A DNA stretch of 57,758 nucleotides, taken from NCBI GenBank assembly GCA_037142675.1, contig JBAXAF010000005.1:1-57758 (forward strand). The letters are read 5' to 3'. Of this stretch, positions 27,024 to 33,370 are shown piece after piece. The stretch's first letter is position 1. Every line of letters starts with the position of its first letter. The translations under genes were made by a program, and so were the position numbers. Source of the stretch: Candidatus Berkelbacteria bacterium (lineage in GTDB: Bacteria; Patescibacteriota; UBA1384; XYA2-FULL-43-10; CAINNR01). Below the pieces are notes generated by a model. That model ran no database searches. It had not been told where the DNA came from and saw nothing but the letters and a program-made list of their open reading frames with translations.

Positions 27024-27036
27024 CGCGATCGCCACA

Positions 27037-27076
27037 GAACCACAACGGGCAGCCCCGCAGGGCCACCCGTTTTTTT
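27037..27076 (+). terminator. terminator / 40-nt direct repeat, copy 1
   Basis: GAACCACAACGGGCAGCCCCGCAGGGCCACCCGTTTTTTT: a GC hairpin plus T7. Near-identical to 28002-28040. Confidence 0.65.
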
Positions 27077-27100
27077 ATTCAAAAATGTAACTGCAAAGAG

Positions 27101-27998: not shown

Positions 27999-28001
27999 AC
28001 C

Positions 28002-28040
28002 GAACCACAACGGGCGGCCCCGCAGGGCCACCCGTTTTTT
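28002..28040 (+). terminator. terminator / 40-nt direct repeat, copy 2
   Basis: GAACCACAACGGGCGGCCCCGCAGGGCCACCCGTTTTTT, with one mismatch to copy 1. Confidence 0.65.
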
Positions 28041-28048
28041 AATTGATG

Positions 28049-29899: not shown

Positions 29900-30035
29900 C
29901 TTATTTCAAAGCTCTAAATTCTAATATCTAAACTCTAAACAATATCAAAATTCAAATGTTCCAATGTTTAAAAATTTTGGGAATTTGATCATTTGGATTT
30001 GTCTAGGATTTAGAATTTAATGTTTAGGATTTTCT
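29900..30035. repeat. palindromic intergenic repeat, family 1, copy c
   Basis: Same arms as copy a. The right arm overlaps the last codons and the stop of lysS. Confidence 0.85.
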
Positions 30036-31393
30036 TTTTCTGGACGCATGTACGGAAAAAGCAGTATTTCTCGCAACGTTTTTGACCCGGTGAGTAGCAT
30101 TACCATCCTGTCGATTCCCATACCCCAGCCAGCAGTTGGCGGCATACCGTACTCGAGTGATTTGATGAAATCTTCATCGTAAGGATGTTTCTCGCCATCT
30201 TCTTTTCTCTCAACCTGTTCTTCGAATCGTTTTTTCTGGTCAACCGGATCGTTTAGCTCTGAGAATGCGTTGGCTACTTCCAAGCCACCTAAAATCAGCT
30301 GGAAGCGTTCAACGGTACCCACGTCCTTTCTTTTCGCTAGTGGTGAAATCTCAATTGGGTGATCAATGGCAAATGTAGGGGCAATTGTTTTACGAACAGC
30401 CGCCTTGAAAGCTTCGTCAGTGTTCGCTCCACCGGTCATTTCGTCGAAAGTAATTCGTGGAAACTTCTTACTAAAATCTACTTTTTCACCTGCAATTTCA
30501 ATATCAAGTCTGCCAAAAACTTCTTTGACTAAATTACGCATCAGCTCTTCGGTAAATTCCATCAACTTTTCATAGTCGGTATAAGCCCAATAGAATTCCA
30601 GGTTGGTGAACTCTGGATTGTGAGTTGCATCTACCCCTTCATTTCGGAAACAGCGGGCAAATTCAAAAACCTTTTCAAATCCCCCGACAATAAGTCGTTT
30701 GAGATAAAGCTCGGGGGCGATTCGCATAAAAACATCTCGGTCATAAGCGTTGTAATGAGTAATAAATGGTTTAGCCACTGCGCCACCTGCAATTGGCTGC
30801 AGCGTCGGTGTGTCTACTTCTATAAAACCATTCAAAACTAAGAACTGCCTGATAGATGCAATAATTTTTGACCGTTTGTAAAATAAATCTTTAACTTTTG
30901 GGTTAACAATTAGGTCAACATAGCGCTGGCGATAACGGGTTTCAAGATCAGTAAGCCCGTGCCACTTTTCAGGTAACGGTCGCAGCGCCTTGGTTAGTAA
31001 TTTGAATGACGAAATCTCCAGCGTGTATTCGCCAGCTTTGGTAATGAATAATTTTCCGGCGGCTTGAATGAAATCTCCAATATCCAAAAGTTCCAGCAGT
31101 TTGAAATCTTCTGGCAGATTATCAGATTTAAACAAAAGCTGAAGTTTGCCGCTCTCATCAACTAAATCGCCAAACATAATTGCGCCATGTCCGCGAAGTG
31201 CCGTAATTCGGCCGGCCAATTTTAATACTTCAGCGCCGGCAACAAATTCGTCTTTAGCCGCTAAAACTTTCTCAACTATATAATTACGATCAGATTTGGC
31301 TGGGTAGCAATCAACACCAAACTCTTCGAGCTTCGCCCGCTTGTCTTTGCGTGATTTAATTAGATCTTCTTCAGTTTTTCCAAGTTCTGCCAT
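30017..31393 (-). CDS. lysS: lysyl-tRNA synthetase (class II)
   Basis: FRNEGVDATHNPEFTNLEFYWAY, GWGMGIDRMVMLLT, N-terminal OB anticodon-binding domain. Confidence 0.95.
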   Translation of the reverse strand: MAELGKTEEDLIKSRKDKRAKLEEFGVDCYPAKSDRNYIVEKVLAAKDEFVAGAEVLKLAGRITALRGHGAIMFGDLVDESGKLQLLFKSDNLPEDFKLLELLDIGDFIQAAGKLFITKAGEYTLEISSFKLLTKALRPLPEKWHGLTDLETRYRQRYVDLIVNPKVKDLFYKRSKIIASIRQFLVLNGFIEVDTPTLQPIAGGAVAKPFITHYNAYDRDVFMRIAPELYLKRLIVGGFEKVFEFARCFRNEGVDATHNPEFTNLEFYWAYTDYEKLMEFTEELMRNLVKEVFGRLDIEIAGEKVDFSKKFPRITFDEMTGGANTDEAFKAAVRKTIAPTFAIDHPIEISPLAKRKDVGTVERFQLILGGLEVANAFSELNDPVDQKKRFEEQVERKEDGEKHPYDEDFIKSLEYGMPPTAGWGMGIDRMVMLLTGSKTLREILLFPYMRPEKENPKH

Positions 31394-31559
31394 AATTTGC
31401 TCCGCAAATTCATAATAATGATGGTATCACACTGATCATTTGCACAGATTCGACACAGATCTTTTTCATCTGTGATTCATGTGTGTTAGATATATGTGTG
31501 CTTTCTTCAATTGATCTCCTTATTTGATACTAGCAAAAAACTCACGAGAATTAAAGTTA

Positions 31560-31568
31560 TGATATAAT
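31560..31568 (+). promoter_or_regulatory. extended -10 element of cassette 5, unit 1
   Basis: TGa-TATAAT. There is no good -35 (ACTCAC at the 17-nt position). Confidence 0.45.
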
Positions 31569-31588
31569 TTCATCAACGAGGTGATCAT

Positions 31589-31780
31589 ATGACTAACGAT
31601 CTGGATAACATTCAGTCACGCGTCCGAGAAAATGGTCCGGACTTCATAACTCGCCACCTACGAGCAATTAGGCCACCTGACCTACGATCGCCTGCGCAGA
31701 TTGCACTGGAGACCGAATACCTCTACGGCCTTGCGTGGATGCAAGGCAAACCAGATTGCATGTTCGCCGTTTCTGACTGA
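31589..31780 (+). CDS. hypothetical small protein, cassette 5 gene A (63 aa)
   Basis: GAGGTGA SD 4 nt before the ATG. GC-rich codons. No family recognised. Confidence 0.45.
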   Translation: MTNDLDNIQSRVRENGPDFITRHLRAIRPPDLRSPAQIALETEYLYGLAWMQGKPDCMFAVSD

Positions 31781-31809
31781 CCGCCCAGCCCATCGCTGGC
31801 GGTTTTTTT
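31781..31809 (+). terminator. terminator of cassette 5, unit 1
   Basis: CCGCCCAGC-CCATC-GCTGGCGG followed by T7, starting right after the TGA stop. Confidence 0.65.
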
Positions 31810-31810
31810 A

Positions 31811-31839
31811 TTGAAAATACCGCAATAATTTGATAGAAT
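31811..31839 (+). promoter_or_regulatory. promoter of cassette 5, unit 2
   Basis: TTGAAA 31811-31816, 17-nt spacer, TGa-TAGAAT extended -10 ending at 31839. Confidence 0.6.
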
Positions 31840-31860
31840 TTCTGGCAGAGGTGATTAGCT

Positions 31861-32124
31861 TTGCGAAACTTACTATCTCGACTAATTGATCTATTTCGTC
31901 GCAAACCAAAACGGAAGCTTTCCGGACTCGAAGAGTTAGCGGAAATTCAGAAGCGAACACTTGAAGAATTCAAACGCATCTCTGACGGCAGAACAGTGTG
32001 GGACGAGCCAATGGACCGTCGTCGTTGTTCCGAACTGGGATATGACTACATCCCGTCTGCTGGTGCCAGCGAAACAGGGGTCCTTTCCGGCCACCGCCGT
32101 CATCGTCGTCCGCCGCCCAGCTAG
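31861..32124 (+). CDS. hypothetical small basic protein, cassette 5 gene B (87 aa)
   Basis: GAGGTGA SD 6 nt before TTG 31861. The leader GTGATTAGCT is shared with cassette 2. No family recognised. Confidence 0.45.
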   Translation: MRNLLSRLIDLFRRKPKRKLSGLEELAEIQKRTLEEFKRISDGRTVWDEPMDRRRCSELGYDYIPSAGASETGVLSGHRRHRRPPPS

Positions 32125-32142
32125 CCGCTGGCGGTTTTTTTT
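32113..32142 (+). terminator. terminator of cassette 5, unit 2
   Basis: CCGCCCAGC-TAGCC-GCTGGCGG followed by T8. The arms are identical to 31781-31802, and the T-run overlaps the dinB stop codon (32141-32143). Confidence 0.65.
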
Positions 32143-33370
32143 AATGCCGAATGTCGTACCTTGGTCTTCCGAAGGGGATTCTGTCTGGTGCGGAATCACG
32201 TGCGGCGAACACTGATGCCGGGTGAATGAAGCCAACACCAAAATCATCATCAATTTTATCCATGGCCTCAGAAATTTTTCGTGATTTTTCAATTTCCGGC
32301 AGAATTGATATTTGCGTGATACGAGATGATGTTAAATTAAAAGCCGAAACGGAAACATAACTTGGGCTGCAGTACCAACTACAATCTTTCAACATTTCAA
32401 AAACGTTTGACGTAAAACTATGGGTGTCAGAAAAAGGGGAGACACGCCTCCCTTTTTTGAAGCCTGGGCCGTTGTAAAAAGAAATTGCCACAAAAATTCC
32501 ACCGGCTAAAAAGCCGTCAGCCCGCAACCGAGAAGCGGCTTTATATATTAATTTTCTAAGAACTGATTTCGCACCAGCAGGTGATCGGTGATCCGGAGCC
32601 AAAACGTGTGAATGACCGATGGTTTTGGTCGATGTCGTATAATCATCAACTTCATAACCTCGCAAACGGTAGTGCCAAAGCCGGCCACCGTGGTTCAAGA
32701 CTGTCCGCAACTTCGGCAAATCCGACTGAAAAAATTCGAGGGGAGAGCTGATTCCCGATTTTACCAAACGGAACTCAAGTGCATGATTTATTCCGGTAAT
32801 ATCGAGCAATTTTATGCTACTGTAAAACTCTTCCAAATTTTTAAGTTGAACTATTATTAAGCCATCGGGCTTTTTGCGCTCCCCCGCCATTTTAGCCAAA
32901 AATCGGTTCGGCCCAATACCAACCGAACAAGTCAGAAAATCGCCAACTTCCGAGAGAATTTTCTCCTTTATCGCCTGTCCCAACCTGGTTGCCGCCGCTA
33001 AATTTTGTTCGTAGCTTGCTAAATTGATAACAAATTCATCAATTGAAAGAACTTGGTAATGCGGAGTAAAACTTTCGATAACTTTGCGTATTTCTTTATG
33101 ATAAATCATATAAAGTGCCGGCCGTGATTCGATAATTTTAATGTCACGGTAAAGTCTCCTCGCCTCTTTGACTAGACAGCCGGTTTTAATGCCCAAGTTC
33201 TTCGCTTCTCTAGACGCAGCAATAATGCAACCAGTGCCGCCGACATATGGCGCGATACCAACAGGGAGACCACGCAAAGTCGGCTGAACTTGCTGCTCAA
33301 CCGACGCAAAAAAAGAGTTCATGTCTAAAAATAATGTCTGAAAATCTTTTGGTTTGTCGACAATGCTCAT
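32141..33370 (-). CDS. dinB: Y-family DNA polymerase IV
   Basis: LFLDMNSFFASVEQ (catalytic Asp), SIDEFVI, little-finger region, 409 aa. Confidence 0.9.
   Translation of the reverse strand: MSIVDKPKDFQTLFLDMNSFFASVEQQVQPTLRGLPVGIAPYVGGTGCIIAASREAKNLGIKTGCLVKEARRLYRDIKIIESRPALYMIYHKEIRKVIESFTPHYQVLSIDEFVINLASYEQNLAAATRLGQAIKEKILSEVGDFLTCSVGIGPNRFLAKMAGERKKPDGLIIVQLKNLEEFYSSIKLLDITGINHALEFRLVKSGISSPLEFFQSDLPKLRTVLNHGGRLWHYRLRGYEVDDYTTSTKTIGHSHVLAPDHRSPAGAKSVLRKLIYKAASRLRADGFLAGGIFVAISFYNGPGFKKGRRVSPFSDTHSFTSNVFEMLKDCSWYCSPSYVSVSAFNLTSSRITQISILPEIEKSRKISEAMDKIDDDFGVGFIHPASVFAARDSAPDRIPFGRPRYDIRH

Follow-up and report, generated by a model that had tools for sequence, protein, structure and literature searches.

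Two small genes ending in the same terminator hairpin probably fill a variable accessory slot that separates lysS from dinB on a Candidatus Berkelbacteria chromosome

Between lysS and dinB on a Candidatus Berkelbacteria chromosome from lake water, two plus-strand units, A (63 amino acids, aa) and B (87 aa), stand back to back with what looks like the same control equipment. Are they two copies of one cassette, or unrelated genes that share a location? The stretch of DNA that we analysed, called the window here, comprises 57,758 nt of contig JBAXAF010000005.1 (assembly GCA_037142675.1). A preliminary description had given each unit a promoter, a Shine-Dalgarno (SD) sequence, a short GC-rich open reading frame (ORF) and a terminator, and had read the pair as a duplicated cassette scaffold carrying different small payloads, inserted flush with dinB and possibly toxin/antitoxin-like. 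The anatomy was confirmed in the sequence (Table 1): the terminator arms are identical around loops of CCATC and TAGCC, the second loop contains the TAG stop of B, and the T8 run after B overlaps the TAA stop of dinB. The short ORFs were present too, although they are GC-rich only moderately, at 52–53% in both units compared with 42% in the genome and 42–43% in the flanks. The whole region was reproduced with zero differences in Logan contigs from two separate lake-water runs, one of which may be the source sample of the window.

The proposed common scaffold did not withstand a nucleotide alignment of the two units. Similarity was confined to the terminator (29 nt) and the SD, and the idea of a duplicated scaffold fails because likeness limited to the terminator is what the preliminary description itself had named as speaking against it, and because the SD is generic. 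The 9-nt form of that SD, GAGGTGATC, is the exact complement of the 3' end of the genome's 16S rRNA, GGATCACCTCCTT, and the 8-nt form occurs 30 times genome-wide, several of these at SD position. The duplication of the terminator therefore stands, while the matching SD drops out as a scaffold feature. We consider it likely that A and B are independent genes that fill a variable accessory slot between lysS and dinB, that their terminator (hereafter T1) is specific to this slot, and that the island in the window is a reduced one. The twin look of the two units would then come from this one slot-specific terminator.

T1 has an 8-bp (4+4) stem with one bulged pyrimidine, a 5-nt loop and a run of seven or eight T (CCGC-C-CAGC / loop / GCTG-GCGG). 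Fold energies were −15.1 kcal/mol for copy 1 (z −4.0) and −14.5 kcal/mol for copy 2, and both copies are predicted intrinsic terminators, each placed where a gene ends and made of a GC-rich stem-loop with a U-run directly behind it. The 27-nt terminator pattern has two occurrences in the window, where shuffles predict 0.00, and none elsewhere in the 989-kb genome. These two copies, 29 nt long and identical at 25 of 29 positions, are the sole direct repeat of the region; they bracket unit B, and the last three codons of gene B (PPS) form the 5' arm of copy 2.

At least six unrelated genes of the slot end in T1-type terminators across the genus and the metagenome sequences closely related to it, and looser variants were observed after two further genes of the congeneric genome G001 and after the A pair of scaffold L049. 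Within the genus the exact motif was found at this locus only, with one other match among 44 genomes of the order. An alignment of seven T1 copies was 98% paired, the sole unpaired cell lying in the decayed copy of G003, and it included two compensatory changes: C-G to G-C after A in G001, and C-G to U-A after B in L017, a metagenome scaffold. Members of the A family that live elsewhere (G139, L047) are without T1, which indicates that the hairpin goes with the locus, not with the gene; to judge from these sequences, T1 appears to be a property of the slot rather than of a mobile scaffold. G001 has a further unit, C, straight after A and its T1, without B, an arrangement that fits insertion of a unit at T1 or its loop-out between T1 repeats. 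Gene conversion between the two window copies was considered and is unnecessary, as both simply hold the consensus arms from which other copies diverged; their identity is put down to retention of those arms under selection. On the dinB strand, T1 copy 2 (window 32107-32146, minus) gives a hairpin of −13.9 kcal/mol right after the dinB stop. It has no U-run behind it, so dinB may be without a canonical terminator, and its transcription may continue antisense through B and A toward lysS.

Conservation of the two ORFs in related genomes, a check suggested in the preliminary description, bears on their coding status. The A and B frames are kept in the related islands, with proportions of nonsynonymous differences (pN) far below those of synonymous differences (pS): pN 0.17–0.24 vs pS 0.84–0.91 for A, and pN 0.34 vs pS 0.75 for B. 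At 0.75–0.91, pS is saturated between the copies; the corresponding pN/pS values of the flanking dinB are 0.13/0.66. With pN so far below pS, both frames are under purifying selection, and A and B are real genes. The earlier claim of independently promoted small-protein genes was thus supported. The predicted promoter of unit B matches 10 of 12 consensus positions and has the TG in addition, and the block AAAGTTnTGATATAAT at the unit A promoter also precedes the operon of A and its paralogue A' in L017. We describe A and B as two monocistronic genes that run opposite to the core genes, each with a putative promoter and terminator of its own.

Protein A is acidic, with an isoelectric point (pI) of 5.2. 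Its orthologues share 63% identity in the lysS-dinB gap of G001 and 68–74% (global or local alignment) on L017. Diverged paralogues came from an exhaustive profile search that covered 1.8 billion representatives: it returned eight small-protein matches, which include A itself and four other already-known members, along with two repeat-protein artefacts. The resulting family alignment of 10 sequences, with the G001 and L017 orthologues included, has the signature LDxIQSRxRE ... (Y/H)W..AWM ... F.VDD. The AlphaFold2 (AF2) model of A shows three to four short helices (predicted local distance difference test, pLDDT, 70; predicted template modelling score, pTM, 0.37), and a Foldseek search of this model against the PDB found no fold match. 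Neither A nor B matched anything in Pfam, NCBIfam, PHROGs, PADLOC or PDB sequence profiles, and A had no relative in 2.9 million viral contigs and no JGI metagenome match. In three lineages A' is translationally coupled to A, by a stop/start overlap in G001 and L049, which suggests that A' and A form a heteromer. Our guess is that A is a small protein-binding or regulatory subunit.

Two distant members of the A family were observed outside the slot. In G139, a distant genome of the Berkelbacteria class (L044:4650-5290, G139:C1, minus), clpP and a tRNA-like sequence border a GC-rich mini-operon whose first gene belongs to the A family; the operon also contains a 69-aa ORF and codes for two tiny membrane peptides of one helix each. 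P0012 (77 aa), the A-like protein that has diverged furthest, comes from another metagenome assembly (L047:1124-5182), where its gene lies inside a five-gene plus-strand operon encoding proteins of 93, 156, 77, 324 and 661 aa, the last with a weak alpha/beta-hydrolase tail. This operon adjoins a PDDEXK_13/REase-ARP nuclease gene.

Protein B is very basic (pI 10.3). It consists of an amphipathic N-terminal helix, an RRKPKRK run, a long helix, an invariant TVWDEPMDRR and a disordered tail, and its AF2 model has a pLDDT of 61. The sole homologue is encoded at L017:1097-1363 (88 aa, 44% identity, E 3e-23); no relatives beyond it were found in 5.8 billion clusters, order-level genomes, JGI metagenome contigs or viral contigs. 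The likeness of the two B genes extends beyond the reading frame. L017 B has the same TTG start, with the SD core GAGGTGA followed by 6 nt as in the window, and a homologous promoter in which both the −35 and the extended −10 are kept (TTGAAA/TGATAAAT); it ends in PPS, and its stop lies inside the loop of a T1-type hairpin. As to function, nucleic-acid binding is our guess.

The lysS-dinB gap was found in all eight genomes compared, with amino-acid identities of 73–96% for lysS and 75–92% for dinB, the latter spanning the orthologues of the family. Its size varies from 60 bp to 2.4 kb, and its contents vary with it (Table 1). At least eight unrelated cargo genes were counted over the window genome (G000), G001, G002, G003, G010, L017 and L049, and in every slot the cargo is encoded opposite to lysS and dinB. 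The genomes closest in dinB (G003 at 92%, G002 at 91%) hold cargo unrelated to that of the window, while A and B are common to the window and G001/L017 (G001 has A only), where dinB is 83% identical. The flanks are themselves mosaic: G002 has lysS at 96% and dinB at 91%, and G003 has lysS at 85% and dinB at 92%. Slot cargo does not follow flank relatedness. Immediately before unit A, positions 31510-31558 are kept in relatives and are native sequence rather than cargo. The genome encodes a ComEC channel, and its single tyrosine recombinase (PF00589) is on contig C10, not C5. A second slot in the same window, between secA and hpf, was observed to hold two units that each end in a 46-nt repeat (93% identical) with a terminator hairpin and T-run inside, a stacked-unit pattern that matches that of lysS-dinB.

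Several further observations concern this slot and its lysS border. In L036 (G009) the slot between lysS (to 5271) and dinB (from 6067) holds the G003-type gene interrupted by an early stop codon and about 130 nt of inserted AT-rich sequence, a pseudogene from which we gather that slot cargo erodes. At the lysS-proximal end of the L049 slot (L049:3216-3779, minus), a 187-aa fragment resembles a transposase (phrog_4646, E 7e-40; no Pfam match), of which it covers the C-terminal half. Upstream of lysS, CACAGAT/ATCTGTG inverted repeats (GACACAGATCTTTTTCATCTGTGATTC) were seen at window 31440-31500, with no Rfam family matched, and similar CACAGAT repeats occur upstream of lysS in G010. They may be an operator or leader element.

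The junction with dinB is where the window departs from its relatives. All relatives end dinB with TAG or TGA, followed by a spacer of ~100–170 nt toward the slot, and in some of them a third gene (C) also lies between the last unit and dinB. The window is without the C unit, the spacer and the original stop, and reads GGCGGTTTTTT|TTA|ATGCCGAATG; the T8 run gives dinB an in-frame TAA that leaves its C-terminus unchanged. The preliminary description had taken this as an insertion flush with the host gene. Given the spacer or third gene of the relatives and their TAG or TGA stops, a deletion junction is the better account. A' is absent as well, and the promoter of the L017 A'-A bicistron stands directly before A. 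The simplest reading is that the window island is a reduced derivative formed by deletions.

The spacer of the relatives was compared with the ~130-bp AT-rich palindromes of the window, and a common identity was rejected, as it belongs to a different repeat family. In G003, G010 and L049 it is a palindromic repeat, GTCATTGCGAG...CTCGCAATGAC, of a family about 70–130 nt long that resembles miniature inverted-repeat transposable elements (MITEs). Copies were seen next to the dinB stop in L034, L037 and L049, and elsewhere in G000 (e.g. C2:34871-34952, C2:41967-42041 and C23:8453-8517). The copy at the slot/dinB stop, present in G003, G010 and L049, is missing from G000. The terminal 10-mer GTCATTGCGA occurs 24 times over both strands of the G000 genome, often as facing pairs, and 0 times in this window.

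Table 1. Features of the lysS-dinB locus and of a second slot in the window, T1-type terminators of related islands, and slot contents in relatives. Positions are those of the window.
Feature	Position	Strand	Details
secA-hpf GC-rich island repeats	27034-27079 and 27999-28044		
lysS (lysyl-tRNA synthetase)	30017..31393	-	Pfam tRNA-synt_2, 3.9e-89; left border of slot, conserved
lysS upstream region	31394..31559		blastn blocks to G002, G003, G009, G001 gaps
Unit A extended -10 promoter	31560-31568	+	TGATATAAT; sequence, activity predicted
SD of A	31578-31585	+	GAGGTGAT; 9-nt GAGGTGATC at 31578..31586; complement of 16S 3' end
Gene A, 63 aa	31589..31780	+	ATG ORF; TGA stop; hairpin directly after
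T1 copy 1	31781..31809	+	CCGCCCAGC 31781-31789, loop CCATC, GCTGGCGG 31795-31802, T7 31803-31809
Unit B promoter	31811..31839	+	TTGAAA 31811-31816, 17 nt, TG-TAGAAT ending 31839; predicted
SD of B	31848..31855	+	GAGGTGAT; 5 nt ahead of TTG; 6 nt from core GAGGTGA
Gene B, 87 aa	31861..32124	+	TTG ORF; TAG stop within terminator loop
T1 copy 2	32113..32142	+	CCGCCCAGC 32113-32121, loop TAGCC 32122-32126, GCTGGCGG 32127-32134, T8 32135-32142
dinB stop TAA (plus-strand TTA)	32141..32143	-	last two T of T8 run plus A
dinB (Y-family DNA polymerase IV)	32141..33370	-	Pfam IMS 6.1e-38 and IMS_C; right border of slot, conserved
T1-type after X in L017			CCGTCCAGC-TACCC-GCTGGCGG-T6
T1-type after B in L017			CCGCCTAGC-TAACC-GCTAGCGG-T6; stop within loop
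T1-type after A in G001			CCGGTTAGC-ACAC-GCTGCCGG-T7; orthologous to window copy 1
T1-type after C in G001			CCGTTCAGC-TACC-GCTGGCGG-T7
T1-type after gene of G003			CCGCCTAGC-TCCAC-GCTGGCAG; decayed, without T-run
G004 slot			60 bp, empty
G005 slot			about 300 bp
G003 slot			106-aa gene
G009 slot			pseudogene of the 106-aa gene of G003
G002 slot			102-aa gene, weakly PadR-like
G010 slot			small membrane protein
G001 / L019 slot			2.4 kb: small ORF, 93-aa membrane protein, three A paralogues, 221-aa gene C
L017 slot			X, A', A (97 aa), B, C (210 aa)
L049 slot			transposase-like fragment, 141-aa gene, A', A

Put together, the course of events that we propose would run as follows. Each unit would act through its own sigma-70-type extended −10 promoter, strong SD and intrinsic terminator, and T1 would have been copied whenever a unit was stacked in the slot. 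The A family is mostly seen in this slot as translationally coupled tandem paralogues (A'-A). Turnover of the slot may have taken two routes, one through recombination in the conserved flanks and the other through units that were gained or lost between direct repeats of T1. An ancestral X-A'-A-B-C island would then have lost A', gene C and the dinB spacer to give the island of the window, and through the deletion dinB's last sense codon would have come to adjoin the T-run behind B, which supplied the new TAA stop.

Six points weigh against this account of the slot. No RNA run was found to contain the stretch, and promoter, terminator and expression are accordingly predictions. The covariation of T1 comes from a small sample of seven copies, and a score as high was reached in 35 of 500 shuffles. 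Hairpins of the form CCGCC...GGCGG-T(n) are the general terminator style of this genome, in which GGCGGTTTTTT was found 13 times; with such a clamp genome-wide, the likeness of the T1 copies could in part be convergence and not descent, and the locus-specific part of T1 is the inner CAGC/GCTG alone. Joints (an empty site, or B looped out) were not seen in four DNA runs, where assembled contigs drop rare variants. The direction of change is a matter of parsimony over about five island variants, and there could have been a deletion in G000 or additions in the relatives. Finally, confidence in the structure models of A and B is low to moderate.

There is an outside chance that the slot-specific terminator hairpins double as joints for stacking and looping out promoter-ORF units, which would amount to a recombinase-poor cassette system in Berkelbacteria. 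Every unit that was added would then stand between terminator repeats of 27–46 nt, a pattern present in the two multi-unit slots of the window, and A'/A, B and C would be modules of a shuffled, lineage-specific accessory toolkit. Another reading, in which T1 is an attC-like recombination site and a recombinase or single-strand recombination captures circular promoter-ORF-T1 cassettes, seems to us very unlikely. It would account for the exact bracketing of unit B by T1 direct repeats, for C following A-T1 without B in G001, for the break of homology between G000 and L017 at the T1/T-run junction, and for the same terminator bracket in the secA-hpf slot. The integron site attC folds into hairpins with a bulged base, which the form of T1 recalls. 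However, no integrase lies near the slot, the lone tyrosine recombinase being on another contig, and T1 is a 22-nt stem-loop with a T-run, a canonical terminator in cassettes that have promoters of their own. The A family members without T1 in G139 and L047 also disagree with such a site, circular or empty-site forms were not seen in assembled contigs of the four runs, and ordinary recombination between short direct repeats accounts for the same pattern. That the island instead goes back to a decayed phage, plasmid or other mobile element, which left its units behind as true morons, is unlikely. The units are autonomous and compositionally distinct in GC, the A family is patchy (a tRNA-adjacent island in G139, an operon beside a PDDEXK nuclease in L047), and the L049 slot has its transposase fragment. 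Yet neither protein has a relative among the 2.9 million viral contigs or a PHROG match, no version of the slot has an integrase, att repeats or structural genes, and the saturation of synonymous sites between island versions speaks for a long residence of the genes in the slot.

The remaining two readings concern the genes themselves. The toxin/antitoxin-like pair of the preliminary description, taken here as acidic A neutralising basic B or the two neutralising each other, is highly improbable. It draws on the opposite charges of the proteins, on both known B genes (G000, L017) lying downstream of an A gene, and on the small size of A and B in an accessory island. The two are predicted not to be co-transcribed, with a full terminator and a separate promoter between them, and L017 has a different terminator there, with A and B about 260 nt apart. 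A occurs without B in G001/L019, L049 and G139, its usual partner is the overlapping paralogue A', and neither protein matches a toxin-antitoxin (TA), defence or any other family. We give hardly any credence to spurious ORFs in a non-coding structured RNA or leftover sequence, a reading that is largely refuted. The lack of family matches, the near-orphan status of B and the missing RNA run would agree with it, whereas the frames stay open, with starts, SDs and motifs kept across saturated synonymous divergence and pN far below pS, and Rfam gave zero matches in the region.

With a slot-specific terminator behind independent genes as the preferred reading, two unannotated stretches become two well-supported small-protein genes, one of them TTG-started; A represents a tiny new protein family and B is a near-orphan. 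The locus documents gain and loss in an accessory slot of an ultra-small genome of the Candidate Phyla Radiation (CPR), with exact junctions, and a case of a core-gene stop codon that appears to have been rebuilt from a terminator T-run by deletion. If the stacking pattern holds across the many GC-rich units of these genomes, it would bear on the flexible gene pool of streamlined, presumably symbiotic bacteria without obvious mobile-element machinery. A and B are candidates for lineage-specific roles such as host interaction or regulation.

Among known systems, the type II TA modules resemble A and B in consisting of two neighbouring small genes whose products have opposite charges, located in an accessory region. 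They differ in that A and B form no operon (predicted) and no obligate pair, have no overlap or coupling, and show no family homology. Integron arrays also have tandem single-gene units, imperfect bulged hairpin ends and cargo that varies by genome. Here, in contrast, there is no adjacent intI and no attI, T1 is a canonical terminator and each unit has its own promoter; an attC site measures about 57–141 nt with R''/L''-L'/R' boxes, whereas the T1 repeat is 29 nt including the T-run and lacks the GTTRRRY core. Phage morons, in the concept of Hendrix and Juhala, are self-contained units of promoter, ORF and terminator, inserted where related phages have two adjoining genes. The units of the slot resemble them in having a (predicted) promoter, an SD and an intrinsic terminator each, in their deviant composition, and in sitting between genes that are adjacent in the relative G004 (60-bp gap). 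Unlike morons, A and B belong to a bacterial chromosome, have neither phage genes nearby nor viral relatives, are transcribed opposite to the flanking genes, and are old residents, as the saturated synonymous sites indicate.

The closest parallel is the minimal mobile element (MME) of Neisseria, characterised in the part of PMC3082526 that cites Snyder et al. by conserved flanking genes, whole-gene cassettes that differ between strains, and homologous recombination. Measured against that account, the slot has the conserved flanks lysS and dinB, unrelated whole-gene cargo per species or strain, most versions without mobility genes, mosaic flanks, and a ComEC channel in the genome. It differs from what is summarised there in that the variation runs across species and genera of uncultured CPR bacteria and not strains of a transformable pathogen, in that units are stacked, each repeating a slot-specific terminator, and in that the cargo consists of tiny ORFan proteins; exchange by transformation and homologous recombination would be the presumed route here. 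The slot fits the MME definition as given in that source, with the recombination step presumed. Both kinds are known, and the locus is a fresh CPR example of them, an MME-like slot with moron-like units, in which the unusual thread is terminator-bracketed stacking.

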